From an uncultured virus (IMG/VR IMGVR_UViG_3300048913_000302) (Duplodnaviria > Heunggongvirae > Uroviricota > Caudoviricetes), in the IMG/VR virus record IMGVR_UViG_3300048913_000302, positions 62,001-116,380 of that record: DNA of 54,380 nt. One strand, 5' to 3'. How positions within the stretch are numbered: the stretch's first letter is position 1; each line of letters opens with the position of its first letter. A model generated the notes under the pieces. The model saw only the letters and a program-made list of their open reading frames with translations. It was not told where the DNA came from and ran no database searches. Below are positions 1,489-50,268 of the stretch, piece by piece. Position numbers and translations under genes: made by a program.

Positions 1489-3927
1489 GTGTTTTACGAA
1501 GAAATTATTCTTGAGCGTTGTAACCGTACAGCGCTTAACGGTAAGGAACGAGTTGTTATTCGTCCTACCTCTCGGGTTCAAATGGTGCTGGGCACTAACA
1601 GTAGCGGTAAGAGCAGTTTGCTGGAGTTGGGTTTCTCTCCCATCCCACCAGATCCTCACAACTTTGATAAGCCGGGTTTCTGGTCAGTCAAGTTCCACCA
1701 CAAAGGCCGTCACTATCATGAGACTGCTGAGTACGGTGACAAGAACCGCTACACCTTCAGCGTCGATGGTGGGGAGAACCTTAACCGCGGTGGTACCATC
1801 ACCGTTCAGCTGGAGCTGATCAAACAGTATCTTGGTGGTTACGATCGTGATCTGCACGCGTTCTTGACCGGTCAGGAGAAGTCGCGGTTCACTGCGATGG
1901 AAGCCAAACGTCGTCAGCACTGGATCGCCAAGTTCAGCGAGCAAGACTTCACCTACGCTTTCGATCGCTACAACCACTACAAGCGTCAGGCTAACGCCAC
2001 CGACAAGATTGTCGAGTACCTGCGTAGTGAACTGGCAGAAGCTAAACGTCGGATGATGGACCCTGACGATATCGCTTCGATGCGAGCAAAAGCCAAAGAG
2101 CTGCACGATACCCTCGACATGCTCATGATGGAACCCAAGTCCAACGCCGATGAGCGTGACCCGTTCGAGCTGTTGTCGGATCTGGAAAGGACCATCGACA
2201 GCATCGCCATGTTCCTCGATTGCGAGTATCCGAAGACTGAAGGGGCTTTGGGTATGGATCAGCTGATTCAGTTCAAGGCCGATGCTGAGGCTCAACTCAA
2301 TACCCTGCAAGGCGAGCTCAACGTACGTGCTCAACGACTGACCGACTGCGAGCAGCGTAAAGGGCGTGCAGCGGCTCTGACCGAAGTCTCCCCTGAGACG
2401 ATCGAGAACGAGCTAGCACGGCTGCGAGAGGAGCTCTCAGAGGTACCTACGTTGCGTACGGGTATCCATGAGTCGCTGTTGATCCCTGCGTCTCAGATTG
2501 CAAACGATCTTCGGTGGATTATCGCCGACCTTCCGTCTGAGAAACCAGCAGAAGCCGATGCTACGTCTAAGCAAGAAACCATCCATCAGGCTGAGATCCG
2601 TCTTGGCAAGATTGTCGGTTTGCTTGAGTCGCTCAAGCAGAATGCTGACTACATCCACAAATGCGAAGAAGTGGAATGTCCTGATTGCCACAGTCGCTTC
2701 AAGCCGGGTATCAAGCCAGGTGAGTTGGAAGCACTGCAAGCTCGGATCAACCAGGGCGAGGCGCTGGCAGAGAGCGAGTCCATGCGAGTGCGTAAGCTCG
2801 AAGAAGAGCTGAGCGACATGGTAGCTGTCTTGAATGCGTATCGTCGTCTGGATGAGTTCAGGGATCGTTACAGCAGCACGTACAGTGGTCTGTTCTCGTT
2901 CTTCGATCGGTTCGGGTGGAAAGACCTCGGCAAAGAGATTCTGTCGAAGTTTGCTATCTACGAAGGCGACGTCACCGTAGCGGCTAAACGTCAACGTTTG
3001 GAAAGTAACATCACCACACTCGAGAATGCGCTGCGTAACATGAAGCTTGAGGCTGGTGAGTTGGCAGGTGCGTTTGCTGACTACGATGCTGCATTGGCTG
3101 AGTACAACTTGTTGTTCGCTCGAGTTGGAGATGCGAAGCGTCGCAAGGCTCGTATCGAGACAGCTTACTTCAAGATGGTTGAGTGGGAACGTAAGGTCGA
3201 AGACTGTGAACGTGCGTACGAATCACTGCGCGGTAAACTGATCGACTACATGAACCTGCAAGGTGACCACGCCATCATGGAACTCATCAGGAAGACGAAA
3301 GTCACCTTGGGTATCCATGAAGCTGCACTCAATGAGAATGAAACCTACGAGACCTTGGCTAAGGACTTGGAGAACAAACTCAAGCAGGCGCTCGTTCGGC
3401 AGGAAGGTTACAACGGTCTGGTAGCTGCCATGTCTCCGAAGAACGGTCTGATCGCAGAACACATCCAGAACCAACTGGGTCGTATTCTGGGTTGTGCAAA
3501 CAACGTGATCGAATCGGTCTGGGGTTACTCACTTCACATCGAAGCTGGGGAACCGGGTGAGACGGAAGTTGACTACAAGTTCCCGATGATCGTTGGGGAT
3601 ACGCCACGTCCAGATATCAGTGCAGGCAGCACCAGCGTGAAGGACATCGTCAATCAGTCGATGCGTCTGACTGGCTATGAATGCATGGACCTGACTGACT
3701 ACCCACTGTGGATCGATGAGCTCGGTGGTACGTTCGATGCCGCTCACCGTCAGAACCTGATTCCGTTCCTGAAGAGCCTGATCGATAATCCTCGCTTCTC
3801 GCAAGTGTTGATCATCAGTCACAGCTTAGATGGGCAGACTGCGTTCCCGGGCGCTGAGATCATCATCCTCGATGACCGCAACATCAACTTCCCTCACACC
3901 TACAATCAACATGTGGAGTTCTCATGA
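1489..3927 (+). CDS. sbcC: SbcC/Rad50-like SMC-family ATPase
   Basis: Walker A GTNSSGKS, long coiled coils with central zinc-hook CPDC, Walker B WIDE and H-loop IISH. Confidence 0.9.
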   Translation: MFYEEIILERCNRTALNGKERVVIRPTSRVQMVLGTNSSGKSSLLELGFSPIPPDPHNFDKPGFWSVKFHHKGRHYHETAEYGDKNRYTFSVDGGENLNRGGTITVQLELIKQYLGGYDRDLHAFLTGQEKSRFTAMEAKRRQHWIAKFSEQDFTYAFDRYNHYKRQANATDKIVEYLRSELAEAKRRMMDPDDIASMRAKAKELHDTLDMLMMEPKSNADERDPFELLSDLERTIDSIAMFLDCEYPKTEGALGMDQLIQFKADAEAQLNTLQGELNVRAQRLTDCEQRKGRAAALTEVSPETIENELARLREELSEVPTLRTGIHESLLIPASQIANDLRWIIADLPSEKPAEADATSKQETIHQAEIRLGKIVGLLESLKQNADYIHKCEEVECPDCHSRFKPGIKPGELEALQARINQGEALAESESMRVRKLEEELSDMVAVLNAYRRLDEFRDRYSSTYSGLFSFFDRFGWKDLGKEILSKFAIYEGDVTVAAKRQRLESNITTLENALRNMKLEAGELAGAFADYDAALAEYNLLFARVGDAKRRKARIETAYFKMVEWERKVEDCERAYESLRGKLIDYMNLQGDHAIMELIRKTKVTLGIHEAALNENETYETLAKDLENKLKQALVRQEGYNGLVAAMSPKNGLIAEHIQNQLGRILGCANNVIESVWGYSLHIEAGEPGETEVDYKFPMIVGDTPRPDISAGSTSVKDIVNQSMRLTGYECMDLTDYPLWIDELGGTFDAAHRQNLIPFLKSLIDNPRFSQVLIISHSLDGQTAFPGAEIIILDDRNINFPHTYNQHVEFS

Positions 3928-4106: not shown

Positions 4107-4119
4107 TCTGGGAGGTTGC

Positions 4120-4317
4120 ATGGACCTGACTCACGCTGCCATCTACTACTCGATGTGGATCGCCGCTTCCTATCTGTCAATCTTGTTGTTGCGGTGGTCT
4201 GCGTTATTGATCATCCCGACGTGGTGGGAGCACTTAGCCCTCGCCGTCATGACAGGACTCTTAGCAGGAGCTGGGTGGTATTCGTTTGTTCGCGAAATGA
4301 AGTGGTATCTATACTGA
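4120..4317 (+). CDS. Small membrane protein
   Basis: GGGAGG RBS before ATG 4120, two hydrophobic segments, ends at a terminator. Confidence 0.65.
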   Translation: MDLTHAAIYYSMWIAASYLSILLLRWSALLIIPTWWEHLALAVMTGLLAGAGWYSFVREMKWYLY

Positions 4318-4321
4318 GACA

Positions 4322-4355
4322 GCATACAGCCGGGGCGAGTGCCCCGGCTGTATGC
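4322..4355. terminator. Bidirectional hairpin terminator
   Basis: GCATACAGCCGGGGC-GAGT-GCCCCGGCTGTATGC, nearly identical to the hairpin at 227-258. Confidence 0.85.
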
Positions 4356-4362
4356 CCTTACT

Positions 4363-5001
4363 TTACGGAGGAGTGCCTTCCAGCTCTTCAATGCGCGCTT
4401 GCAACTGCTCGACGAGTTCCATCAAGGCTGCTTCGTTCGCACGACTGTTCGCCAGATCGTTGATCAACCGCAGGTTCTCTGCGTAGACAGAAGTCCGGTT
4501 CTTGATTGCAGCGTTACGTGCATTCAAGTCTTGGACGTACTGTTCTTGTGTGATCGCTGAGGTCACCGGTGCTCTGGCTACGAACACCTGCGCAGGAACA
4601 CCGACGTGCTCTGAGATGGCGTCACTCACCGCTTGTTGCAACGCAGTGGTGTCGTACATGTCAGGCAGCATTCCACAGCTGGCCGATACCACCACCCAAC
4701 TGTGCGGTACCACACCCATGTCCGGATACGACTCGATGTACGTGTCCGGTACATGGATCGCCGCTTCAGTGGCTGACGTCAGCGTGACGATAACCGCCCC
4801 AGCTGCTTGGTCAGATGCATACGCCGTTTCGTCAAGCCCTACAGGCCGGTACACCAAATCCATCGGATCGATCTTCTGATCAATGATGTCCTTGAAGTTC
4901 CGGTGTGCATCTACCTTGTAGGCAACCGTAGCCGTAGCCCGGTAAGGAGCTCGTAGGATGAAGAGTCCTACTGAGTTCATTGGTGGTGTGACTCTGGCCA
5001 T
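4363..5001 (-). CDS. Putative virion structural protein
   Basis: 212-aa ORF with C-terminal coiled coil, coupled to the upstream gene, in a structural-gene context. Confidence 0.6.
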   Translation of the reverse strand: MARVTPPMNSVGLFILRAPYRATATVAYKVDAHRNFKDIIDQKIDPMDLVYRPVGLDETAYASDQAAGAVIVTLTSATEAAIHVPDTYIESYPDMGVVPHSWVVVSASCGMLPDMYDTTALQQAVSDAISEHVGVPAQVFVARAPVTSAITQEQYVQDLNARNAAIKNRTSVYAENLRLINDLANSRANEAALMELVEQLQARIEELEGTPP

Positions 5002-34608: not shown

Positions 34609-35406
34609 ATGGGCGCAGCAGCGGCTAGAAGCGACCAGCAGTATTTTGCGACGTACAGTAACGTCGCGCTGCAAGGGACGCTCAAGAAAGGCATCCTCAA
34701 ACAACTCGACAACGGTTACTACGAGATCATCCTCGGCGCCTTCGCAGCGTTTGGTAATGGCGGTTGGATCTACGATGAAGCGACAGCAATGCGCTACATC
34801 GAGAACGATCGTGATTTCCTGGCTGAACTGAAGGGCGGTCGGATGTACAGCGAGTGGGGTCACCCGGTTCGTCAACCAGGTCAAAGCGATGCGGATTGGT
34901 TTGCTCGTATCTGCTCGATCCTGGAGACCAACACCTCGTCGCACATCCGTGCTATCAAGTTGTCGTTCAACACTGTGACTGACGAGAAAGGCCGCAAGGT
35001 TGTCGCCGTCATTGGCGAAGTCAAACCTGCCGGGTACAAGGCTGACGAATTCCGTCTGCTGTTGGAAAACCCGCATGCGGATGTGGCGTATTCGATTCGC
35101 AGCTTTGCGCGTCGCGACTTCGCTACCAGTCGCAAACACATCACCAAAATCATCACCTGGGACAGTGTCACCACTCCGGGGATTGCGGTGGCGTCGAAGT
35201 ACAACACTCCTTCGCTGGAATCCAAGGACGTTACACTCATCCTGGACAAGGTCGAAGTGGAGTTCAACTTGCAGCGGTTGCGTAACAGCGTTCCTGAAGC
35301 CATGAACGCCGAGAGCTTCGAAAGCATGCCGCACGTCAAGATCCTCAATTCCTTGTATGAAGAGCACAAGCGCTCCATTCAAGTTCCCGCAACCTTCAGA
35401 TGGTGA
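34609..35406 (+). CDS. Prohead (head maturation) serine protease (phiKZ gp175-like)
   Basis: YSEWGHP (His), YSIRS (Ser), TWDSVTTPG, and C-terminal SLES/AESFES candidate autocleavage sites. Confidence 0.9.
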   Translation: MGAAAARSDQQYFATYSNVALQGTLKKGILKQLDNGYYEIILGAFAAFGNGGWIYDEATAMRYIENDRDFLAELKGGRMYSEWGHPVRQPGQSDADWFARICSILETNTSSHIRAIKLSFNTVTDEKGRKVVAVIGEVKPAGYKADEFRLLLENPHADVAYSIRSFARRDFATSRKHITKIITWDSVTTPGIAVASKYNTPSLESKDVTLILDKVEVEFNLQRLRNSVPEAMNAESFESMPHVKILNSLYEEHKRSIQVPATFRW

Positions 35407-35416
35407 GAACCTCCCC

Positions 35417-36784
35417 ATGAGCCACAATATTGCCGATATGCTGTCGCAGCTGACCACCGAAGCGGCTGTCGTTGACATGCCAACCGAAGGTCCGATCGAA
35501 GAACTCGACAGCTCCCTGATGGATCAAGCCGACGGTGCTGGTGAACCTACCGTTGCCTCGATCGTCGAAGACCTGAAGCGCTCCGAAGATCTGGGCGGTA
35601 CTCTGAACGACATCGCCGATCGCGCCGAAGTCGTCGAGACCCAACTTGCCAAGACCGGCGAAGATGCGCCAAGCGAAACCGAACTGAAGGTGGCTGAAAT
35701 CACCGTCGAAGGTCTGGTTCGCGAATACGGCACCACCGTACGTGCTTTCGGCATGCAAGCTTCGTGGCAGTCCTATTCCACCGAAGCTGCCCAAACACCA
35801 ATCGAGCGCGCAACTGCGATCAAGAACGACAGCCGCAAGTTCGGCGGTATCGCCAATCAAGCCGCTCTCAGCCTGGGTGATGTTTCGACCGAATCGTCCG
35901 GTATCGTCAAGGTGTTGGGTCGTCACAAGGCGCGCCTGGAAACCGCACGCGCTGCGTTGCAGAACGCTTCCCGCCGTGTCGAGGCGAACATCGCTGAACT
36001 GAAAGATCAGCCGAAGATCGTCCACAACAACGGCGTTGCTCGCTTCATGACTCGCCACAACGGTGCGGTGACCAACCTGCCGGCAGCGATCAAAGAAGAA
36101 GCCGCGTGGATGGCCAAAGCTCACAGCGCTGTTCACAGTGCGATGGCTGCGATCCATACCGCCGTTGCCAAGGTCAAGGCCAATCCTGAACTGACCATCG
36201 AGCAGATCTTGTCGTCTGGTGAGTTCAAGGCCATCAACGAACTGTCGACCAGCGTCGGTTTCCTGATGGGTAACCACACTGTCGAGATCAAGAAGTCCGA
36301 AGTGCCGGTTCCTTACTACTACCGCCACACCAAGGACATCCACAGCACGGTAGGTTCTCGTGTTGCCGGCGGTATCTTTGCCGTGGCTGGTGGTGTGGCT
36401 TCTGGTAACACTGCTACTCTGCTCACCCTCGCGATTGGTGGTCCGGCAATCGGTCCAATTGTCGCCGCAGCAGCTGGTGGTGTGGCTCTGGGTAAAACCA
36501 TGTCCAGGTACGTTAAGGACCGGTCCAGCGTTACCAGCGCTGCATCTGCTCAGGACATGAAGCAGGTCTTCGATCTCGTGCTGGGGTACAACAAGTACAC
36601 CGACGCGACCATGGACTGGAATGTCTTCAACGAACTGGACGACGCCCACAGCGCTACCAAGAGCAAAGCGATCGGCGCTCTGAGTCACGCTGCGTGGAAC
36701 GTCTACGTCGTCAGCGAGATCCTGTACGATCAGGCGCTCTACACCACCACTCGCCTGGCCATCCTGGCTCGCGACATTTCGTAA
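35417..36784 (+). CDS. Putative internal head protein with acidic propeptide
   Basis: Acidic N-terminus, two STE motifs, Gly/Ala-rich hydrophobic C-terminal segment. Confidence 0.65.
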   Translation: MSHNIADMLSQLTTEAAVVDMPTEGPIEELDSSLMDQADGAGEPTVASIVEDLKRSEDLGGTLNDIADRAEVVETQLAKTGEDAPSETELKVAEITVEGLVREYGTTVRAFGMQASWQSYSTEAAQTPIERATAIKNDSRKFGGIANQAALSLGDVSTESSGIVKVLGRHKARLETARAALQNASRRVEANIAELKDQPKIVHNNGVARFMTRHNGAVTNLPAAIKEEAAWMAKAHSAVHSAMAAIHTAVAKVKANPELTIEQILSSGEFKAINELSTSVGFLMGNHTVEIKKSEVPVPYYYRHTKDIHSTVGSRVAGGIFAVAGGVASGNTATLLTLAIGGPAIGPIVAAAAGGVALGKTMSRYVKDRSSVTSAASAQDMKQVFDLVLGYNKYTDATMDWNVFNELDDAHSATKSKAIGALSHAAWNVYVVSEILYDQALYTTTRLAILARDIS

Positions 36785-36796
36785 GGGTTTTCCAAC

Positions 36797-38194
36797 ATGA
36801 ATGACATCGAAGAGCTGTTGAAAGGCTACACCGCCGAATCGGGCGCTATCACGCCTGAGGACACCGGTGCGGTCGACGACGCCGTCGTTCATCGCCTGGA
36901 CGACGTTACCGAAAACAGCCTGGCGGCTGAGATCTCTTCTGCGGCTGACGCTGGCGAAGTGGCTGACCATCTGGATGAGATTGGCGATCGTGCTGAAGTA
37001 CTGGCCGAAGCCAACGACACCCTGACTGCTGAAGTGGCGATCGAAAGCCTGCACCGCGAGTTCAACACCGTGGTACGCGCCTGGAAGTTGCCGGCGACTG
37101 CTGAGTCGTTCGAATCGGCAGGCAGTGATGAAGGTCGGATGCGTGGTCTGGCGCGTGATGCGCGTCGTTCGGCTGAGATCGCTCGTGAGTGCCGTGCACT
37201 CACTCTGGACTTCAGTGCGGAAGGTCGCATCGTGGAGTTCCTGCGTCGTGACAAGGCCAAACTCGAGAGCGCTAACAAGGCCCTCGAAGAAGCCATGCAT
37301 ATGTTGACTCCGATCGCAGCCAAACTGCGTGAAGGCGGTGTGATCCTCAAGCACGACGGCTTCCGTCGGTTCCTGACTGTGGAAGGTAAAGAAGTCAACG
37401 ACCTGGATGCTGCTCTGCATCGCCAGACCGAACTTCTGACTCACGCTCACGACGCTGCGCTTAAGGGCCTGTCCGAAGTCGTATCGATGGCCAAGTCCCT
37501 GCTGGGCACCAACGTCAAGGCTGGTGTGGCTAACGCAATGAATGGTCGTCACTTCGGTGAACTGTCGAACGTTGCGACTGCCAAGGGCGGGCTGCTGGGT
37601 AACTTCACCATCAGCGCCAAGGACAAGCCTGGCAAGATGGCTCACCTGGCAGTTCCTGTCTTCTCGCGCTCCAACGAGCACAGCTTCTCGAAGATGGGTC
37701 TGGCCAAAGGCGTGGGTACCGCCACCTGGAAGCTGTTCGTCGGTTCCGTACGTCATGCCGCCATCCAAGGCGCCATCGGGCAGAACGGTAACCGGTTCGC
37801 TCATGGCGTTAATGATGCCCTGCATACGGCAAGTGACGTCGATGCGATCAAGAAAGGTGTCGACAAGTATCACCAGCACGTCAATGCCTCGAAGATGAAG
37901 TCTGCTGCCACCTACGAAGAGTTGGTGAAAGCGGCTGAAATGGTTCGTGGTTACGTGAAGTTCACCACCGATCGTCTGAACCTGGACGACTTCGAATCGG
38001 CTCTGAAGTCTGCTCGCGGCAATACCGCAACGCTGACCTCGGAAGAGAAGTCCGATCTGAAGGGTGTGTGCTCGGCGCTGGAAGATGCGGCTGGTCGTAT
38101 CGCCGGTCTGGAGAGTGTTGTCTATGAGCAGGCGGTGTACACCACCACCCTCATGGCGTCCCTCATCAAGAACGTCGTCGACAAGATCGAGTGA
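36797..38194 (+). CDS. Putative internal head protein, paralog-like to the previous gene
   Basis: Acidic N-terminus with AIE, SFE and SAE motifs; C-terminus YEQAVYTTTL versus YDQALYTTTR in the neighbour. Confidence 0.65.
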   Translation: MNDIEELLKGYTAESGAITPEDTGAVDDAVVHRLDDVTENSLAAEISSAADAGEVADHLDEIGDRAEVLAEANDTLTAEVAIESLHREFNTVVRAWKLPATAESFESAGSDEGRMRGLARDARRSAEIARECRALTLDFSAEGRIVEFLRRDKAKLESANKALEEAMHMLTPIAAKLREGGVILKHDGFRRFLTVEGKEVNDLDAALHRQTELLTHAHDAALKGLSEVVSMAKSLLGTNVKAGVANAMNGRHFGELSNVATAKGGLLGNFTISAKDKPGKMAHLAVPVFSRSNEHSFSKMGLAKGVGTATWKLFVGSVRHAAIQGAIGQNGNRFAHGVNDALHTASDVDAIKKGVDKYHQHVNASKMKSAATYEELVKAAEMVRGYVKFTTDRLNLDDFESALKSARGNTATLTSEEKSDLKGVCSALEDAAGRIAGLESVVYEQAVYTTTLMASLIKNVVDKIE

Positions 38195-38200
38195 TGGCCT

Positions 38201-38242
38201 GACCACCTACGGCTTTGCGGCCGTAGGTGGTCTTTATGCCGT
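38201..38242 (+). terminator. Hairpin terminator with TTTATGCCGT tail
   Basis: GACCACCTACGGC-TTTGCG-GCCGTAGGTGGTC-TTTATGCCGT. Confidence 0.85.
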
Positions 38243-39160: not shown

Positions 39161-40153
39161 ATGAACGCAGCAGAATTCCTCACCTCCCTGTTCGAAGAAA
39201 ACACTCGCAAGATCGTGGACATCGAATACAAGGAAGAGTTTCGTGGTAGCACCGGTTACTTCGAACCCATGATGTCGATGGCTCTGGGTCTGCCTATGGG
39301 CACTCGCTTCCGCTTCAACACCGGCCCTGAGAACAACCGTCGTGTCGTGGGGATCGTTACCCCTGTCGGTAACGTGATCTTCTTCGACCGCTTCACCGGC
39401 GGCGAGAACGAGGTGGTTGTTCAAAACGTACCGGCTCCACTGTCGGGTCTGTACCCCACGGGTGCGGTGACCTTCGAATCCATCCATCAAGCGATGGGCG
39501 GTAAAGACGGTTACGGCGTGGGTATCTCCGAGGTTGTCTCGCGCATTTGCAATATCGCCAACATGCTCCCCATCCACGCCAAAGTGGGTTGGTTGGTGAA
39601 TCGCGAAATCGTCATCGGCGACAGTGTTCCGGAAGACTTCGAGGGTGATCACCTTAACGGGGTCAAGGACATCCTTGCGCCAGCGCCGGGAACGATAGAA
39701 GACGAGCCTCGTGGCGAAGGGTTCGACGAGTCGTTCACGTTGCTGAACTACGGGAGCTTCCCTAACCTGGATCATGGTGGTCCAGCACGGCTTCCGTTCT
39801 CTACCGAACTCCCAGTAGAGGCGCGTGCACGCATGGAGATGACCCAAGTCCATGCAAGGGCCAAGATCGAAGATCCGGACAAGGTAGATCTCACCGCTAT
39901 CATGGCGCGGGTCGAAGCCTATCTGACCGGTACGCCTGACAACACTCTGCAAGAACGAGTGGAAGAACTGGCCGGCATGCTTCCGGAAACTGGCGATCGC
40001 TACCGTCGTGCACGTCTGGCGCTGCGCATCACAGCTGTACACATGACACCAGTTCAGATCACCAATCTGATGGTCCAACTGCGCACAGCTGATCCTGCGT
40101 ACGTCAACGATCTGGTAAACAACACGATCGCAAACGCACGCCTCATGAAGTAA
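39161..40153 (+). CDS. Hypothetical protein
   Basis: AGGAG RBS, 330 aa. Confidence 0.75.
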   Translation: MNAAEFLTSLFEENTRKIVDIEYKEEFRGSTGYFEPMMSMALGLPMGTRFRFNTGPENNRRVVGIVTPVGNVIFFDRFTGGENEVVVQNVPAPLSGLYPTGAVTFESIHQAMGGKDGYGVGISEVVSRICNIANMLPIHAKVGWLVNREIVIGDSVPEDFEGDHLNGVKDILAPAPGTIEDEPRGEGFDESFTLLNYGSFPNLDHGGPARLPFSTELPVEARARMEMTQVHARAKIEDPDKVDLTAIMARVEAYLTGTPDNTLQERVEELAGMLPETGDRYRRARLALRITAVHMTPVQITNLMVQLRTADPAYVNDLVNNTIANARLMK

Positions 40154-42170: not shown

Positions 42171-42509
42171 ATGTCGGAAATCGTACATCGTCTGAGCAAT
42201 CACGATACCAGCACCATCGGTAAGTTCGAAGCAGCGCTGCGCAAGGAGTTCGATCTGCGCGTTGTGTTTCGACTCGATCATCACAAAGAGCACGTCACCA
42301 ACGACGCTAACCTGCGTGACATCTGCAATGCATTGAGCGACGTCAAGCTCAATAAGTCTTCCCAGGTCCGTCAGCTGTTGGCTGCGAAGATGGTGTACAT
42401 GAAACATCCGCGTGGTTACTCCGTCGCCGGACGTTGTCCGAAGGACATGTTCGCTCATCCTGAGCGTTCACAAGTGGTCGTGGTCAACATGCCACGGCGA
42501 GCAAAATAA
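42171..42509 (+). CDS. Basic hypothetical protein, similar to the previous gene
   Basis: AAGGAG RBS; IGKFEAALRKEFDLRVVFRL versus VGDLETAFHREYGIRMVIRL. Confidence 0.75.
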   Translation: MSEIVHRLSNHDTSTIGKFEAALRKEFDLRVVFRLDHHKEHVTNDANLRDICNALSDVKLNKSSQVRQLLAAKMVYMKHPRGYSVAGRCPKDMFAHPERSQVVVVNMPRRAK

Positions 42510-42552
42510 GATTCTCCTGTAAAAAGTTACAGAGCAGGTAGTATCTTATGTT

Positions 42553-42728
42553 CGAGAACTGCCTAACGTCCTACTTGCTCGTGGCTGCGTTCGGTTGTTC
42601 TCGTCTTCCGGAAACGCGCTGCTGCCATTTGGGCTGCTTGGCCGCGGGTCCGGACGTTGCCGGCGAGGCGCTGCAAGGTCTAACCTAAGCGTTCCGCCTG
42701 CCGGCGAGATGTGAGTTCTGGCCATCTC
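42553..42728 (+). ncRNA. Four consecutive hairpins leading the tRNA/ncRNA cluster
   Basis: Closing stems CGAGAAC/GTTCTCG, TCCGGA/TCCGGA, GCCGGC/GCCGGC and GAGATG/CATCTC, just after TATG at 42547-42550. Confidence 0.45.
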
Positions 42729-42755
42729 TCACGAGAATCTAAAGATGTCCAAATC

Positions 42756-42832
42756 GCTGCGTTAGCTCAGCTGGTTAGAGCACTAGCCTGTCACGCTAGG
42801 GGTCAGGGGTTCGAGTCCCCTACGCGGCGCCA
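42756..42832 (+). tRNA. tRNA-Asp (GUC)
   Basis: Full cloverleaf: acceptor GCTGCGT/ACGCGGC, anticodon arm CTAGC-CTGTCAC-GCTAG, TTCGAGT T-loop, encoded CCA. Confidence 0.97.
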
Positions 42833-42839
42833 CTTTCAT

Positions 42840-42915
42840 TCCACGATAGCTCAGTCGGTAGAGCAGCGCACTGTTAATGCGCGGGTCCCTGGTTCGAGTC
42901 CAGGTCGTGGAGCCA
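42840..42915 (+). tRNA. tRNA-Asn (GUU)
   Basis: Full cloverleaf: acceptor TCCACGA/TCGTGGA, anticodon arm GCGCA-CTGTTAA-TGCGC, encoded CCA. Confidence 0.97.
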
Positions 42916-43000
42916 TTTCTTTAGATCCGAGCGTCACCTACCCTAGGCGCACCGCCCTCTCGGATCTTCATAGCTACAAAGTAAAATTCGTCGTTATCTT

Positions 43001-43229
43001 GGTCTATCAGGATAGCTCCGGAGGCAAAGCGCCGTACCCTGCTGGGCAAGTGACTGGAAGAATAGACTCAACCTATCACCGCAGCCAAATAAGCCTGAAG
43101 CGTATGAAGGCTCCTTGATTACTGGGGACGTCAGTGATGTTTCAAGCGTAAGTCCTCCAACGGGTTTCAGTGCCGGCAGTTGGAGGCAGCCTTATTCCTT
43201 TGGTACGGCAGTCTACGGACTGCCTGACC
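43001..43229 (+). ncRNA. Multi-stem structured RNA of unknown family
   Basis: Stems GCCGTACC/GGTACGGC, CCTCCAAC/GTTGGAGG, ATTACTG/CAGTGAT, AGCCT/AGGCT and GGCAGTC-TACG-GACTGCC. Confidence 0.55.
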
Positions 43230-43250
43230 TTATGCTCTTGTAAGATTTAC

Positions 43251-43363
43251 GTCTAGGGGAGAGGTTCGAAACCTCTCGGTGATGGCCACGGGGTGGCACG
43301 TGCCGTACAGCGGTACGTCACTTAAGTTTCAGGCATATGGGTTCGACTCCCACCCTAGGCTCC
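43251..43363 (+). ncRNA. Double-T-arm tRNA-like RNA, copy A
   Basis: Acceptor-like GTCTAGG/CCTAGGC plus TCC; T-arms AGAGG-TTCGAAA-CCTCT and TGGG-TTCGACT-CCCA. Confidence 0.7.
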
Positions 43364-43370
43364 GTTTTAT

Positions 43371-43505
43371 CCCTCGGTCACAGATGGGTTGTCAGGAAAA
43401 GATGTTCGATACGCTTACCATGACGCAGGCACAGCTGGCTTGTACGTAAACTTTGGTAAACGTCGTTCATCCTTCTGAGGTGGTTCGAATCCACCACTTG
43501 GGGCC
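43371..43505 (+). ncRNA. tRNA-like RNA with 3' T-arm and no D or anticodon arm
   Basis: GGTGG-TTCGAAT-CCACC followed by ACTTGGGGCC, with a weak 5' partner CCCTCGGT. Confidence 0.45.
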
Positions 43506-43566
43506 TTGTTCGTATCTTATCAGACCGGATAGCCGTGAAAGGGCTGGAATGTTGGGGTACGCGCGT

Positions 43567-43681
43567 TACCATTGTAGGGGGTGGTGCAACTCCACCTGGT
43601 GATGGCCGTTGTAGATCGGCTCCGGCATCCGTGCCGCTGATGTGAGGAACTCATACGGGTTCGAATCCCGCCACAATGGTA
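43567..43681 (+). ncRNA. Double-T-arm tRNA-like RNA, copy B
   Basis: Closing stem TACCATTGT/ACAATGGTA; T-arms GGTGG-TGCAACT-CCACC and CGGG-TTCGAAT-CCCG; shares GGTGATGGCC with copy A. Confidence 0.7.
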
Positions 43682-43759
43682 GTCTGAAGCACCGCTGATC
43701 TGGGTACTGGGTCAGACACGACGGTCACCGGGACTAGTCCGGTACAGCCAGCGATTTCC

Positions 43760-43906
43760 CAGCGTGTAGCTCAACATTTAGAGCAACGGAAACGAAGCGT
43801 AAGTCGCAGGTTCAAGTCCTGCCCTCCCGTGGTACTGGGAGGTAGTGGAGAGAAACCACGTACGCGGGTGACGTAGGGTCTCGGTGAAAATCCGGGGGCG
43901 CTGACC
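43760..43906 (+). ncRNA. Nested double tRNA-like RNA (outer tRNA body plus inner permuted tRNA)
   Basis: Two D-arms, two T-arms, one open and one loop-closed acceptor stem; see findings. Confidence 0.75.
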
Positions 43907-43919
43907 TATCAAGTATATC

Positions 43920-43948
43920 GCCCGGCCTAGCGCCGGGCTTTATGCCGT
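43920..43948 (+). terminator. Hairpin with TTTATGCCGT tail closing the RNA cluster
   Basis: GCCCGGC-CTAGC-GCCGGGC-TTTATGCCGT. Confidence 0.8.
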
Positions 43949-43998: not shown

Positions 43999-44970
43999 AT
44001 GAAACAGAATCCCCTCAAAGTTGTATTGGGTACCAGCCGTCGCGACATGGTTAACGAACTCATCGACATCCTGAAGATTCCTCAGGGCAGTGAGGTTCGC
44101 AGCATGAGCTGGGAAGGCAGTAACATCCATCCGCAAGTGGTGCGTGAATGCATTGAGACCGACCTGCGTGATGAAGACCTTCTCAATCAGGGTTTCAGTC
44201 AGGGCGCTGATATCATCGCCGTGATGAACGCCAGCGGGTATCGTGTGGTTCGTGATAATCGTCCGGATCATTCGGCAGGTGCGTTCGTTCACTTCTCGAA
44301 GAACATGATCGTGATCCACCCCGTCGGCGCTGACGTGTCCGAGCACACCAAGGATGCCATCACGGTCCGTACTGAAAGTTACTACCCAAATACTACCAAA
44401 GGTTTCTCGGTGTCTGGTGTGGTGTACGATCAGGAGAACCTGGATCTGCGTTACCCTCGTTCCATTCGGATCGTCAATCTGCTCGAAGGTGAAAACCCTG
44501 CGGCTTCTGCCATCGTCCACACGGTCAATGAGCAAGTGCTGGCAACGTACATCAGCCTCGGTGCCATCGGTCTGTCTCTGGGCGCTGTGGACGTGGCTGT
44601 AGACCAGCACGAACTGATGACTCGCGATGACAGTGAGTATGGCTTCGTCATGACAGAGCTGGCTCACGTCCTTCTGTGGGGCCTGTTGGAGCAACAGCCT
44701 ACGTCTATCATTGACGAACTGCTGACGTTCCTTCAGCGCTCTCTGCGCTTCGTTGATCCGGCCTTGTTCGATGCTGAGTTCGAACAGCGTTGGGTATTAC
44801 AAGAAGAAGCCTGCACTCAGTTCGGCGATGGTGCCTGGAGCTTCATGGTCAACACCCTGGTCAGCCGTAACCTCATGGCGTATGAGGAACGCAACTACCT
44901 GTTGACTGGTACCGGCATCCACTTCTACTACCTGCTCCAGATCGCCATGGTGCAGCACCACCTGGAGTAA
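43999..44970 (+). CDS. Hypothetical protein
   Basis: GGAG RBS, 323 aa. Confidence 0.75.
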   Translation: MKQNPLKVVLGTSRRDMVNELIDILKIPQGSEVRSMSWEGSNIHPQVVRECIETDLRDEDLLNQGFSQGADIIAVMNASGYRVVRDNRPDHSAGAFVHFSKNMIVIHPVGADVSEHTKDAITVRTESYYPNTTKGFSVSGVVYDQENLDLRYPRSIRIVNLLEGENPAASAIVHTVNEQVLATYISLGAIGLSLGAVDVAVDQHELMTRDDSEYGFVMTELAHVLLWGLLEQQPTSIIDELLTFLQRSLRFVDPALFDAEFEQRWVLQEEACTQFGDGAWSFMVNTLVSRNLMAYEERNYLLTGTGIHFYYLLQIAMVQHHLE

Positions 44971-45260: not shown

Positions 45261-45848
45261 ATGTCGAAAGAACAAATGAATCTCCAGCTGGACCAATCGT
45301 CACTGGAACCGTGGCAGATCCGCATCAATGACGTGTTCAACATGGTGGAGAACCTCGAACGCCGGTTGGGTATCAAGCCAGCTCCTCGTCCGAAAATCAT
45401 CCGCGAGATCCTTGAGATCGAATACTTCGGTGGCGAGAGTCAGTTCAGCCAGCGCGCTCGCGGTGTGAAACCTGAACCTTTCCCAGAGTCAGTTCTCTGC
45501 GAGCCGGGTATTGCAGCGGCGGTGAAGAAGAAGGTGCAGTTGTCTCTAGGCGGTAAGCTGTACGGTAATCGTCAAGTCAACGACATGTCTCTGTTCATCC
45601 ACGTCGTTGACGAAGGTTCACTGAAGATCACCGCCTACAACCACAAGGACCGTAGCGTCGAACTCACCCACTCCACCTACAACAAAGCTGGGGATGGTGA
45701 GAAAATCACCTTCAGGGTCTACGGACATCTGGTCGTGGTAAACGTCGATGCGAAGTTCCGTACCGGTAACGCCTACTACCAAGTGGGCGATCAGAAGGTC
45801 GGGATGGTCGAACTGAAAGAGTGTCCTCTCAATCCGTTCGAGGAGTGA
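45261..45848 (+). CDS. Hypothetical protein
   Basis: AAGGA RBS, 195 aa. Confidence 0.7.
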   Translation: MSKEQMNLQLDQSSLEPWQIRINDVFNMVENLERRLGIKPAPRPKIIREILEIEYFGGESQFSQRARGVKPEPFPESVLCEPGIAAAVKKKVQLSLGGKLYGNRQVNDMSLFIHVVDEGSLKITAYNHKDRSVELTHSTYNKAGDGEKITFRVYGHLVVVNVDAKFRTGNAYYQVGDQKVGMVELKECPLNPFEE

Positions 45849-45850
45849 GT

Positions 45851-46552
45851 ATGAGTAAATACAGCGCTTGTCGTGTCCAGCAGATTCAACCTAACGGTGA
45901 GTTGAAGTTGTTGGCCTACGTATACCTCGATGGAGATCCGTTGGATTCGTCAACGGGTCGTTATCCAAAGGTCTCTGCGTGGGATGAGGACGGCCTTCCT
46001 CTGCCGATTCCGGAGTACGACACAGAGATCGATTGGCTCACTCCGGATAAGAAAGCCGTAAGGCGGTACTACATGTCGCTACCTTTTCGCACTGGTAAGG
46101 TAATGATCAAGGTAGATCCTGCCGATAAGACCGTCGAAGCGTGTTACAGCTACCAGAATCGGATGGGGTACTTCACCAAGTTCGAGCCTGTGGTTGAAGG
46201 TTGGCAACCAAGCGTTGACTTTACCGCGCGTCTTCATCAACTGACGCTGGAGGCGACGGGAAAGATGATCTCCTTCCCGTTCCGACATCCTGAGTTGATG
46301 ACCAACCTGACTGACTCTATTGCCAGTGCTCAGTTGGTTGGGGTGATCGACTTCGAAGGTGGTCATTGGCCAATCAGGCCAATCGGTGGTTGGGCGGAGA
46401 ATGCGAGCTCGAGTGCGTTCACTTCCAAGATGAACCAGCGCGGCGGTCGAATCGACATCAACTACCAGAACATGGAACTGCGTTGGGACGGTGACTTTGC
46501 CGGTTGTAAGTTTGTCGTCAACATCCGCATGCACAACAGGAATAGATCATGA
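45851..46552 (+). CDS. Hypothetical protein
   Basis: AGGAG RBS before ATG 45851. Confidence 0.7.
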   Translation: MSKYSACRVQQIQPNGELKLLAYVYLDGDPLDSSTGRYPKVSAWDEDGLPLPIPEYDTEIDWLTPDKKAVRRYYMSLPFRTGKVMIKVDPADKTVEACYSYQNRMGYFTKFEPVVEGWQPSVDFTARLHQLTLEATGKMISFPFRHPELMTNLTDSIASAQLVGVIDFEGGHWPIRPIGGWAENASSSAFTSKMNQRGGRIDINYQNMELRWDGDFAGCKFVVNIRMHNRNRS

Positions 46553-46704
46553 CGGCTGACTTCGACGGCGATATGATCAACTACGTTGAACCGCCAGTGG
46601 ATAAGAAACGCGTAAGACAACAATTCAATAACCTATCGTTGTGTAAGAAGAATGCGCGGCGGCGACTATTGAAGAAGTTGAGAAAGCCCCAGATCCTCAA
46701 GTGA
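46549..46704 (+). CDS. 51-aa basic peptide beginning with ADFDGD
   Basis: AGGA RBS, ATGA coupling, MTADFDGDMINYVEPPVDKKRVRQQFNNLSLCKKNARRRLLKKLRKPQILK, then a terminator. Confidence 0.65.
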   Translation: MTADFDGDMINYVEPPVDKKRVRQQFNNLSLCKKNARRRLLKKLRKPQILK

Positions 46705-47162: not shown

Positions 47163-48029
47163 TTACGGACGAACCATGTTCGACTTCATGGCAGTGATCT
47201 GCTCTTGGAAGCCAGTCGGTACTGCCGCGGTGTTGGCGTCGACAGACTTCACAGCGGTCTGCTGGTACGACGGATCGATACCAGTGACACGAACAGCATC
47301 CATGAAGCCTTGTGCCAGCTTCTCGACAGCGTAGCCCACTTTCTGCCAGCCTGCCCATTGCAGGTTGTAGGTGCGGGTCTCACCGGCTTGTTGCAGAACA
47401 CGTTGACCAGTGTCCTCGCCGATTTCGCCGTTCGGGTAGAAGTTCGCGATCATCCACGCGTTTTCCACGTAGCGGAAGGTCTTGTCCGGTTCCCAGGCCA
47501 GGATGCAACCGGCGTAAACGTCGGCCAGCTGGTCGGTGAACTCGTTGGACACCGCCGACAACAGCGGGTGACCGGTATCCGGGTCGCCGATGAGGTAGCG
47601 GACGTAGTCCTTCAGGAAGCGGATGATCGGACGACGATCCTTCTCCACAATGGTCGACGTGATCTGCGAACGAGCGCGGCTCACGCGGCCAGGGGTCTGG
47701 AACATCTCACCGGCGTTACCCAGAGCGGTTTCTTGCGATTCCACGCTGAGCGTCTGGTTGAAGCCAGACCAGCCCTGCATCCAGTTCTCGATGATGTTCT
47801 TGTACGCAGCGATGTAGGCCTGCGCATTCGGCATCATCATCAGACCCAGAGGGATCTGCAGAACCTTGATGATCAGGTTCTTGTTGATGTAGTCGGTTGC
47901 CGACGGATAGAAAGCCATATCCGTCAGGTAACCTTGTTGACCCTGGACCGCGAGGTTCAGGATGGTGGTTTGAGCGGTAGAGGCCGACCCTTTGTTGGTC
48001 AGCGTATCCTTGTACCTCAAGTTAGCCAT
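47163..48029 (-). CDS. Tail tube protein (phiKZ gp30-like by synteny)
   Basis: GAGGA RBS before ATG 48029 (MANLRYKD), overlaps the sheath stop, strong codon bias. Confidence 0.75.
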   Translation of the reverse strand: MANLRYKDTLTNKGSASTAQTTILNLAVQGQQGYLTDMAFYPSATDYINKNLIIKVLQIPLGLMMMPNAQAYIAAYKNIIENWMQGWSGFNQTLSVESQETALGNAGEMFQTPGRVSRARSQITSTIVEKDRRPIIRFLKDYVRYLIGDPDTGHPLLSAVSNEFTDQLADVYAGCILAWEPDKTFRYVENAWMIANFYPNGEIGEDTGQRVLQQAGETRTYNLQWAGWQKVGYAVEKLAQGFMDAVRVTGIDPSYQQTAVKSVDANTAAVPTGFQEQITAMKSNMVRP

Positions 48030-50103
48030 TGGCAGTATCCTCGTTGCGGCGACGTTGGGCGATGATGGCCAGGTTCTCCACGCCGCGCAGACCTTCACCT
48101 TCCATGTTGATGTCGAGGTGCCATGCGGTACCCATCGCCTCATCCAGCGCGGTGTAGTACGCGTTCGGCGTCACGTCAACACGACCGTCGTAACGGTCAG
48201 GGTTGGTGGTCTTCGCGATGACGCGGCGTTCTACTTCTTCCAGGAACGCATCGTCTTCCAACTGATCGTCACCTGCCAGTTCACGCCAGACGATGTGGCC
48301 GATCCGGGTGAGGTTACAGATGATGACCACGTTCAGGTAACTGTGCAGTACCGAAGTGTGGTCCTCGTGGATCGACTGCACGCCCAGCCAGGCCAGACGA
48401 GACATGTCGTACTCGGTGGCGAGGTTCAGACCGTTGTCCCAGTCGTTCACACGCACATCGTCGTCGCGGAAGACGGCGTTGTGGTCGCGGTAACGAGTGA
48501 TGATGGTCTTCTCGCCACGGCCGAAGGTGAACTCGCTGGTCATCGAACCGGAGTCCGAGCTCAGGTACTTGGCACCGAGGATGCAGAGGTATTCCAGGAA
48601 CGGAACCAGCTGATCGTAGTCATCCTCGATCAGATAACCGGCGTTCGGCACGAGGCAGAAGCGCATGGCTTTGGTACCGAACTCGGCGGATTCCTGCATG
48701 GAGCGGAAGGCCGAACGCAGAGCCACGCCGATCGAGGAGTCCTCGGCCGAGGTGTTGATGCGCTTGGACACGTCCTGGGTGCAGCAGTGGATCAGCACGT
48801 CTGGACGGATCTGGTGGAACTTGCCGAACTTGATCTTGGTAGCCAGCGGGAAGCCGGAATCCCAGACCGAGTCGTACGGCATGCGCGCGATCGACTTGAA
48901 CGGAATCGGCGAGTTCTCGATGTTGGTCAGCAACTCGTCAACCAGAGTGTTGTAACCTTCTGGGGTCAGAGTACCGTCGCTACCACCTTTGAGGTACAGG
49001 TTCGAGGTCTCGTTCAGGTACACGCCACCAGTGGTCGGACCTTCCAGCACGAACGTGTGGTAAGGGTTACCGTCCATGTCAACGCCCGACAGGAAGTTGA
49101 ACAGGTGGATGTCGCTGAAGTCTTCGCCGGTGTGCGCTGCTTCAGCTTCGGAAAGCTTGGTCAGCAACTCGGTGATGTTGGCATCGTAAGCGAACGCCTT
49201 TTCCATCGGACCGAAACCGGTGAAGGCAGTTTCCTTCTTCGACTCGTAACGTGGCACGATGGCCTTGTCGAAGCTGTACTGCGTGCGAGTCGAGCGATCG
49301 ACCACGCCCTTCTTGAAGCTGAAGGTACAGTAGGATTCTGCAGTGATGGTACGAATCGGCGATGCGGTCGAAGCCGAGGTCGCACGTTCGATCATCTGAA
49401 TGCGGTACAGCCGAGACTTCAGCTGCTCTACCAGGCTTTCGTCCAGAGGTTCAGACGACTTGCTGGTTGGAGCCCACATGCGGAAGCCGATGTTGCTACC
49501 GCGAGCACCACGGAAGCGAGCAGCCCAGTCAGTGACCGGAACCACTTCGGACACGCTACCGTCCTTGACCGATACCAGAGCACCGGCAGCACGAGAACCT
49601 GCGCCATAGCCGTTGGTACCTTCAGGACCTGCAACGATTTCGACCACACGCCATTGACCACGGAAACCAGGAACGGTATCGCCAGTCGGGATGCGAGCGC
49701 CAGTGCCGTCGAACTTCAAGCTGCCGTCGAGGTTACGCTCGTACAGCGGGATGTCGTCGGCGACAAGGTCGAGGACCATACGGCCGGTAGCCTGCTTGGC
49801 GTCAGCAGGACGCAGACCCAGGAGCAGTGCTTTACCACCAGCTTCCAGGTGAGACTTCAGGAACTGGGTCTGGTGAGTGAAGAAAGGCGACAGCGGCTCG
49901 AGCAGGTCGGAACCGTACAAAGCCGTGGCGGTGTTGGTGTTGATGTAGCGAGCGCGGTTTTCCTCACCCCATGGCGCAAAGTCCATGAACAGTGGGATAC
50001 GGATCGGCAACGCTTCGGAAGGCGTAGCGATATTCACCGGGCTACGGTCGTCCGTCCCGCGGAAATTAACCCGCGGCAGAGAACTGGTTTGAGCGACAGG
50101 CAT
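48022..50103 (-). CDS. Tail sheath protein (phiKZ gp29-like)
   Basis: 693 aa; PLFMDFAPWG, LYGSDLLEP and VWDSGFPLATK resemble jumbo-phage sheath motifs. Confidence 0.85.
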   Translation of the reverse strand: MPVAQTSSLPRVNFRGTDDRSPVNIATPSEALPIRIPLFMDFAPWGEENRARYINTNTATALYGSDLLEPLSPFFTHQTQFLKSHLEAGGKALLLGLRPADAKQATGRMVLDLVADDIPLYERNLDGSLKFDGTGARIPTGDTVPGFRGQWRVVEIVAGPEGTNGYGAGSRAAGALVSVKDGSVSEVVPVTDWAARFRGARGSNIGFRMWAPTSKSSEPLDESLVEQLKSRLYRIQMIERATSASTASPIRTITAESYCTFSFKKGVVDRSTRTQYSFDKAIVPRYESKKETAFTGFGPMEKAFAYDANITELLTKLSEAEAAHTGEDFSDIHLFNFLSGVDMDGNPYHTFVLEGPTTGGVYLNETSNLYLKGGSDGTLTPEGYNTLVDELLTNIENSPIPFKSIARMPYDSVWDSGFPLATKIKFGKFHQIRPDVLIHCCTQDVSKRINTSAEDSSIGVALRSAFRSMQESAEFGTKAMRFCLVPNAGYLIEDDYDQLVPFLEYLCILGAKYLSSDSGSMTSEFTFGRGEKTIITRYRDHNAVFRDDDVRVNDWDNGLNLATEYDMSRLAWLGVQSIHEDHTSVLHSYLNVVIICNLTRIGHIVWRELAGDDQLEDDAFLEEVERRVIAKTTNPDRYDGRVDVTPNAYYTALDEAMGTAWHLDINMEGEGLRGVENLAIIAQRRRNEDTANG

Positions 50104-50268
50104 GGTTAACTCCCAGGAGTAAGTTCTGCGCAGAACGTCGGGGAATGGTATGGTTGCCTAACTTCAGCCGGTCGATGACCGATACGCTGGAGTTAGCATA
50201 CTATTTTTGTTTCTGCGCCAAGTACTAATTTGTAACTTTTTAACTCACATAAGTTGGAGACGCGAGCA

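Follow-up and report, generated by a model that had tools for sequence, protein, structure and literature searches.

What does a phage encode in some 1.4 kb of DNA that lies between two open reading frames (ORFs), carries two tRNA genes and holds no convincing ORF of its own? The question is raised by positions 42547 to 43948 of a 54,380-nucleotide stretch from an uncultured virus (IMG/VR record IMGVR_UViG_3300048913_000302, positions 62,001 to 116,380), called the window hereafter. A reading made from the sequence alone had proposed an RNA-only operon in which tRNA-mimic RNAs are co-transcribed with two ordinary tRNAs. In our analysis, the locus is a real, partly conserved RNA operon, a variant of a known and unexplained kind with one striking architecture, an apparent fused double tRNA, that is present in cultured phages. 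We assign a probability of roughly two thirds to the view that its non-canonical units are selected, host-processed, non-decoding mimics of tRNA.

T-arms and structured units of the RNA region

The RNA region is flanked by an ORF that ends at 42509 and by another that starts at 43999, and all the units described below lie on the plus strand. The nine T-arm-like hairpins reported between 42547 and 43948 were recovered exactly; 1000 dinucleotide shuffles gave 0.037 on average and never more than 2. Their loops start at 42810, 42893, 43265, 43342, 43484, 43585, 43660, 43811 and 43885, and read TTCRA in seven cases and a variant in two. On both strands of the 116-kb contig, 17 such hairpins were found, 9 of them inside the RNA region. 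In agreement with the sequence-only reading, ARAGORN calls two canonical tRNAs alone, tRNA-Asp(GUC) at 42756-42832 and tRNA-Asn(GUU) at 42840-42915, both with an encoded CCA and with Rfam scores of 68.2 and 69.2 bits, respectively. Further Rfam matches were all below the cut-off (in brackets): tRNA at 43766-43823 with 28.7 bits (29), YrlA with 22.5 bits (69) and tRNA-Sec with 22.4 bits (47). Models of transfer-messenger RNA (tmRNA), RNase P RNA, group I introns and GOLLD/ROOL gave no family match at E ≤ 5 between window positions 40000 and 46500 and none in the locus of the relative G017, and no tmRNA was called by ARAGORN. The lack of a convincing ORF was likewise borne out: four ORFs of 56-135 amino acids (aa) overlap the region, the longest of which spans both tRNAs, and their best PHROG match has an E value of 0.012.

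The units, designated a to l, are separated by spacers of 14-43% GC, as AT-rich as had been stated. Compared with shuffled sequences, folding is clearly better for a+a2, c, f and g (z −2.8 to −3.5), and z is only −0.1 to −1.75 for b, d, e, h, i, j, k and l. Mimicry of tRNA applies to part of the set: four of about 11 non-tRNA units (g, h, j and l) carry T-arms, whereas the d+e unit appears to be of another kind and seven hairpins are not tRNA-like. By the ARAGORN call and the Rfam cut-off, none of the four T-arm units forms a cloverleaf with a 7-nt anticodon loop. The anticodon position is occupied by a rod in h, by a second tRNA domain in l and by short-loop hairpins in g and j, and an acceptor stem, a T-arm and an N-CC(A) end occur together in h and l. 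The three N-CC ends (43361-63, 43503-05 and 43904-06), TATG (42547-50) and the terminal hairpin followed by TTTATGCCG all lie where they had been placed.

When sequence homologues were sought by blastn in 50,697 phage records, the matches listed concerned the tRNA pair only, and the non-tRNA part yielded only weak pieces of tRNA or terminator. A 174-nt contig matching 42937-43110, from a run whose RNA origin is a guess, was not counted as expression. Conservation does extend beyond the two tRNAs, as distant phages have homologues of h and l that show covariation.

A predicted fused double tRNA and a tRNA top half on a rod

Unit l (43760-43906) is, in the predicted fold, an outer tRNA that has a circularly permuted, YrlA-like tRNA domain where the anticodon loop would otherwise be. 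It has an A-CC end and no anticodon loop, and its description as a fused double tRNA is based on a helix map, pair probabilities, tertiary pairs and 10 homologues. From 5' to 3', the order is outer acceptor, D1, half an anticodon stem, variable strand, T1, inner acceptor, D2, the other halves, variable strand, T2, outer acceptor and A-CC. The outer acceptor is formed by 43760-66 and 43897-903, the inner T-arm by 43806-22, the inner acceptor (a 7-bp helix closed by a 6-nt loop) by 43823-42 and the outer T-arm by 43880-96. The anticodon strands are thus predicted to be swapped between the two halves, and the simplest origin would be a tandem duplication of a tRNA, with an exchange of partners between the acceptor strands as well as between the anticodon strands.

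The 10 homologues are distributed two each in G007, G020 and the cultured phages FLC9 and RTH11, and one each in L043 and G029; near-duplicates in L036 and L039 and a second L043 copy are left out of the count. In 10/10 of them, all five positions of the first anticodon strand pair with the strand that precedes T2, and the best local pairing is 0-3. Ordinary tandem tRNA pairs, used for comparison, show 4/4 local pairing. Unit l itself has 3/5 swapped pairs plus a tandem G-A on one side and 5 pairs on the inner side, with swapped-pair probabilities of 0.51 and 0.63 versus 0.04 and 0.11 for local pairs. Tertiary contacts point in the same direction: A15-U48 and G15-C48 arise only if the strands are swapped, and the variant G55/A56 in the distant T-loop (T2) finds its match in U18/U19 of D1. 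In an alignment of five homologues that leaves out the window, three of whose rows are close kin, 93% of cells are paired and 19/37 pairs are changed on both sides; 0/500 shuffles score as high and slid controls reach 35-50%.

A model trained without RTH11 found a new double tRNA at RTH11 75848-75998, with 102 bits. Both RTH11 (OQ790161, 75699-75998; locus L169) and FLC9 (LC667451; locus L002, 4203-4663) have two fused doubles each; in FLC9 a tRNA with a large insert in the anticodon loop sits between them, and its record annotates none of the three. Full CCA is encoded in 8/10 homologues, and one FLC9 copy also encodes CCA after the inner acceptor. The inner loops of the doubles vary from a tetraloop to branched inserts without a common cleavage signal. 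Outer acceptors with mismatches or bulges are found in unit l, the h family, G029, RTH11, FLC9 and FLC1-1B, the doubles of G007 being perfect. The recurrence of distorted acceptors in so many units suggests selection against entering translation.

Automated recognition of doubles was less satisfactory. As a discriminator, the double-tRNA covariance model fails to separate fused from ordinary tandem tRNAs; when it was run on 20 named records and six matches were inspected, SPN3US 2930-3074 and FLC1-1B were not doubles. A descriptor script gave 2 false matches and missed 2 true ones. Because the model is not specific, membership of unit l rests on the helix-by-helix analysis.

Unit h (43371-43505) has the layout of a tRNA top half with a G-CC end, a short hairpin at the D position and, where the anticodon arm would be, a long rod, as indicated by an independent model match, an acceptor table and covariation. 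A model built from four homologues (G007, G020, L043 and G017), without the window, finds 43370-43506 with 48.5 bits (E 2e-8), a match that outranks every canonical tRNA in 19 sources. Over 40 records, matches at E ≤ 0.01 were obtained in 6: four full copies (G001 and three training genomes), a tRNA-like unit of G004 that shares the acceptor, and an ordinary tRNA of FLC9. The 8-bp acceptor bears a −1:73 pair, G5-U68 and, at 4:69, a mismatch of two pyrimidines that is C-U in some copies and U-C in others, a signature kept in 6/6; full CCA is encoded in 5/5 homologues with the h-type acceptor. Alignment of unit h gave 94% pairing, with 8/48 pairs changed on both sides (0/500 shuffles), mostly in one lineage contrast. 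The copy found in sequencing run X8 has two compensatory changes in the T-stem (43481/43493 and 43482/43492); its listed rod changes convert G-C to G-U or fall within mismatches, and 25 further differences are present. The rod keeps invariant paired and unpaired nucleotides (CGATAC/CGTCG region) across the window, G007 and G017. On these comparisons, unit h is conserved in three distant phages. Pattern searches for unit h gave real matches in 3/7 viral loci and 4/21 metagenome loci, the remainder being chance.

Other units, borders and genome context

Units g (43251-43363) and j (43567-43681) resemble each other in layout: a closing stem, a T-arm immediately after it, the decamer GGTGATGGCC, internal hairpins and a second T-arm. 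In g the closing stem has 8 bp and the end is T-CC; besides its paralogy with j, g folds with a z of −2.8. Unit j, described by comparison with g, also has the sub-threshold match to tRNA-Sec. All 12 pairs compared can form in both units, and 3/12 are changed on both sides, compensatory in both T-stems, with two effective sequences only. Both units may be reduced double tRNAs that lost D1. Candidate homologues elsewhere proved real in 1/2 loci and in 1/56, and the best outside match had an E value of 0.12.

Unit d+e (43015-43195) is probably a structured RNA of about 180 nt, without T-arm and with the conserved hairpin loop GAAGCGTA, for which likely homologues are found in G017 and the cultured phage Noxifer. 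Pairwise nhmmer searches gave E 0.0035 for Noxifer and 0.21 for G017, and profiles built from two of the sequences retrieved the remaining one at E 0.002-0.005 in 2/3 leave-one-out directions (854 kb of redundant loci). In the alignment, 8/28 predicted pairs are changed on both sides, and a covarying helix precedes an invariant CGC with which the hairpin loop GAA(A)GCGTA can pair to form a predicted pseudoknot. On this evidence d+e is probably one conserved pseudoknotted RNA, common to Noxifer, where it falls within an unannotated gap of 405 nt (197155-197561), and G017. A pattern search found 3 real matches among 9 loci, which were the loci used to design the pattern; a second search of 45 records gave 2 new matches, both inside a protein gene. 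Blastn with the Noxifer copy found Noxifer alone. A likeness of the d+e motifs to RNase P RNA was unsupported by Rfam in the window and in the G017 locus.

The leader hairpins a, a2 and b (42550-42752) are not tRNA-like, with z −3.4 for a+a2 and −0.55 for b. Further hairpin units are c (42923-42967, z −2.9), f (43202-43229, z −3.5), i (43508-43566, z −1.3) and k (43684-43756), which consists of two small hairpins and is the weakest unit (z −0.1). No homologue of a, a2, b, c, f, i or k was found by nhmmer in 27 related loci. Compared with G001, a2 has 10 substitutions in 94 nt. Substitutions relative to this genome are clustered, in hairpin a2 (10 in 42648-42688) and in the anticodon stem of tRNA-Asn (6 in 42866-42883, partly compensatory), a distribution that suggests local recombination patches.

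The array is preceded by a likely phage-polymerase promoter (42519-42550), made of GTAAAAAGTTAC (42519-30), a gap of 16 nt and TATG, with a probable start near G42550. The assignment is based on recurrence: an A-rich TTAC element of the GTAAAAAGTTAC type lies 15-16 nt ahead of (T/G)ATG at the array heads of G004, G007, G020 and L043, and the window promoter is the only such composite site in the contig. The sequence-only reading had pointed to the TATG as the phiKZ late-promoter core. TATG is indeed at that place; its frequency is 1.2 per kb, and therefore it has little meaning alone. No TATG core is mentioned in the text of PMC8244752 and PMC11512511. For phiKZ, the middle promoter is described as a TACT that follows an A-rich run and has its centre 22 nt before the start (PMC8244752), and a middle promoter drives a tRNA in phage 201phi2-1 (PMC11512511). 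The evidence thus favours the A-rich TTAC element over TATG alone and points to a promoter of the phiKZ middle type. A second AAAAAGTTAC element was noticed on the minus strand at about 50230-50245, upstream of the tail sheath gene, and another similar one elsewhere in the contig.

At the other end, a terminator-like hairpin followed by TTTATGCCG (43920-43947) has a z of −3.2 and nhmmer matches in G017 (E 5e-4) and G007 (E 9e-3). It was not called by a simple terminator scan. Similar hairpin + TTTATG ends are found at the close of relatives' arrays, and the same promoter and terminator marks enclose relatives' arrays.

The source contig is a 116-kb virus record with a phiKZ-type tail sheath gene at window positions 48022-50103 (PHROG 3242, E 4e-176), beside which a structural gene of PHROG 3185 was also matched. 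The sheath is about 30-35% identical to those of the cultured phiKZ-like phages DT01, PhiEaH1, Goslar and SPN3US. Judged by these two genes, the contig belongs to a phiKZ-like jumbo phage. Its closest relative, G001, is a complete genome of 243 kb, about 98% identical across the RNA region by blastn, and at least half of the region's words are present in 7 listed sequencing runs, among them root, plant and rhizosphere metagenomes; two of the seven are possible sources, and no RNA run is listed. About 700 bases of the window (approximately 46005-46698) are missing from G001 as a gap between two blastn blocks, and with them most of a 243-aa ORF (45821-46552). Long ORFs antisense to real genes, at 35396-38206 (936 aa) and 47992-50109 (705 aa), are probably a codon-bias effect.

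Relatives were collected by sheath searches, which yielded 15 and 34 loci; tRNA matches were found in 3/15 and 10/20 of the relatives' records. Among six near-complete relatives with 54-58% sheath identity, an array is present in G004, G007 and G017 and absent from G002, G010 and G016. The arrays show no synteny with the sheath, and canonical tRNAs are intermixed in them with abnormal units. A protein-coding gene interrupts the arrays of G007 and G020 midway (L024 ~4110-4782 and L030 ~890-1562), which is not so in L043. Non-canonical T-arm RNAs without a counterpart in the window occur at L024 5724-5834, L030 2744-2854 and L043 2742-2852, and more of them at L088 ~1680-1825 and ~2125-2225, L003 ~4415-4490 and L153 ~1805-1917. 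Several abnormal units (L024 3899-3975, 4789-4940 and 5123-5249; L169 2200-2338) have a G-1:C73 pair ahead of an encoded CCA; this pair is the identity element of tRNA-His.

Possible roles and relation to known RNAs

How such RNAs might arise and act can be put as follows. The tRNA operon of a phiKZ-like phage would be transcribed as one RNA from a phage-polymerase promoter; host tRNA-maturation enzymes would cut it at the AT-rich spacers, RNase P would trim the products and the host would complete their CCA ends. Co-transcription, trimming and CCA completion are steps that we infer. No member of the CCA-adding family was detected in 5/5 records searched, and for this reason maturation would rely on the host. 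The products would be two working tRNAs and a set of stable RNAs that keep the acceptor stem, the T-arm, the elbow and the N-CC end without an anticodon loop. Unit l would present two tRNA elbows joined tail to tail, and unit h a conserved rod on the top half of a tRNA. Such mimics would retain the parts of tRNA that are read by proteins, yet they could not decode. Host attacks on tRNA and the phage replies to them have been reviewed (PMC7824862), and patchy, modular gain and loss of units fits a role in conflict. We therefore favour, tentatively, uncleavable shape decoys that occupy host tRNA-attacking or tRNA-sensing proteins during infection as the most likely role, with cargo scaffolds second. 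A more elaborate version, which we regard as doubtful, is that the doubles are two-headed tRNA dumbbells whose elbows meet at their anticodon sides and which, perhaps after being opened, have two CCA ends, and that they act as bivalent uncleavable inhibitors of host tRNA-targeting defences or sensors. If true, they would represent an RNA-only class of counter-defence, beside cargo-bearing tRNA tops with deliberately distorted acceptor stems.

Several observations weigh against selected mimics of tRNA. Nucleases that recognise the anticodon loop would hardly be distracted by RNAs that lack it. The array units are dispensable, because 3/6 near-complete relatives have no array and because a contig of run X8 lacks 43753-43916, so that unit l is missing as a block. 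Unit l is also the most degenerate double, with a G-G mismatch in the acceptor and D-loops without GG; the gap between its swapped and local folds is only 1.7 kcal/mol, and the double-tRNA model ranks the ordinary Asp+Asn pair (67.8 bits) above it (48.3 bits). The 15:48 test over 11 doubles favours the swap in 3, the unswapped wiring in 1 and is silent in 7, and the covariation alignments hold 4-5 related sequences. No distant homologues of g and j were found, their copies being limited to their own and near-identical genomes (2/48 records). Moreover, the CC of g, correctly located in the earlier reading, is CT in its 98%-identical nearest relative, G001, and j has no CC.

Among other explanations, the one that deserves most attention, as a possibility somewhat weaker than decoys, is that the tRNA parts are handles for processing and stability, and that the inserts (the h rod, the inner domain of l and the d+e pseudoknot) bind specific proteins of the phage or the host, by analogy with engineered tRNA scaffolds. 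The invariant nucleotides of the h rod, the many different inserts found on tRNA tops in relatives' arrays and the apparent conservation of d+e without tRNA features would be accounted for. The tRNA-like parts are, however, the most conserved parts of h and l, G004 has an h-type acceptor on a different body, and no partner protein has been identified. It is rather unlikely that we are looking at processing intermediates. In one form of this idea the inner domain of l is excised like an intron; in the other, RNase P cuts open the loop of the inner acceptor and the new end receives CCA, so that the RNA would consist of two pieces and have two ends that could be charged. The 7-bp inner acceptor helix is the feature that lets YrlA of Mycobacterium smegmatis be cut by RNase P and given CCA (PMC4201824), the CCA after the inner acceptor of one FLC9 copy would fit, and tRNA introns, one of which may encode a tRNA, are described for Lak phages (PMC6784885). 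Yet the variable inner loops offer no shared signal for cleavage, removal of the insert would not restore an anticodon loop, and RtcB is present in just 1/5 records. The Lak inserts, compared by description, are introns with intron-less alleles, whereas the insert of l is a permuted domain joined through swapped stems, with no anticodon to restore.

The units might also be decaying tRNA duplicates or recombination debris carried without function. Patchy presence in relatives, the clean loss of l in X8, the seven units without homologue and the degenerate features of l, g and j are what one would expect. As a general explanation it is nevertheless improbable: phages of Xanthomonas, Burkholderia and uncultured hosts keep the swapped helices and tertiary pairs through compensatory change, and the odd acceptor signature of h is kept in 6/6. 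Decay is thus unlikely for h and l, and possible for a2, b, i, k and perhaps g and j. Least credible of all is a role of unit l as a Y RNA, tethering a Ro60 protein. The inner half of l (43806-43859) does follow YrlA (RF02553), with a permuted T-arm, a loop-closed acceptor and a D-arm entered through the anticodon-stem position, and matches it weakly; the score of 22.5 bits is, however, far below the cut-off of 69, and dimeric tRNAs can score as false YrlA hits according to the authors who described YrlA (PMC4201824). Unlike YrlA, unit l has an outer part that is a second tRNA body, whose ends form a real acceptor and not a Ro60-binding stem. No YrlA match at the cut-off was obtained in 10 related loci, and a Ro60/TROVE gene was found in 0/10 records searched, including G000 (46% complete) and G001 (complete). 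A lone circularly permuted YrlA-like tRNA domain, with T-arm, long hairpin-closed acceptor and D-arm, was noticed in Klebsiella phage FBKp24 (L171, MW394391 ~45975-46079, minus strand), again without a TROVE gene.

Stable tRNA-like RNAs have precedents in phages. T4 produces RNAC (species 1) and RNAD (species 2), late RNAs from the tRNA region whose roles are given as unknown (PMC9697503, PMC3014915), and the T5 record lists several stable RNAs, three of them called tRNA-like. Like the units described here, those of T4 and T5 (RNA1, RNA2, RNA3 and others) are non-coding RNAs of 110-150 nt beside phage tRNA genes. RNAC, RNA1 and RNA2 fold into a closing stem, a T-arm and an enlarged middle, as unit h does. 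Location in a phage tRNA operon, absence of coding and a tRNA-like 3' half are shared as well, and the kind is therefore already known. Homology to the T4 and T5 stable RNAs was not detected for g, h or j (nhmmer on the T4 and T5 loci, the g/j model, and the h model on T4), and among those folded here there is no RNA with two T-arms, as in g/j, or with another tRNA domain fused to the first, as in l. A viral RNA screen with 10,006 candidate RNA models, which may already include the families described here, reports five tRNA-like candidates (PMC10690425); no description of fused double tRNAs in phages was found in the literature searched, mostly without subscription papers. Closer at hand, the tRNA clusters of phiKZ, DT01, Noxifer and D6 also have the Asp(GUC)+Asn(GUU) pair, an A-rich/TAC promoter element and a hairpin + TTTATG end; they are annotated with canonical tRNAs only, and the units between are left unannotated.

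The double-tRNA architecture built through swapped anticodon stems occurs unannotated in the cultured phages RTH11 and FLC9, and the d+e RNA probably in Noxifer. Standard annotation misses most RNA genes of such operons. The tRNA-like stable RNAs of T4 and T5 have long been known without an assigned role, and the covarying families described here make the question testable with structural mutants.

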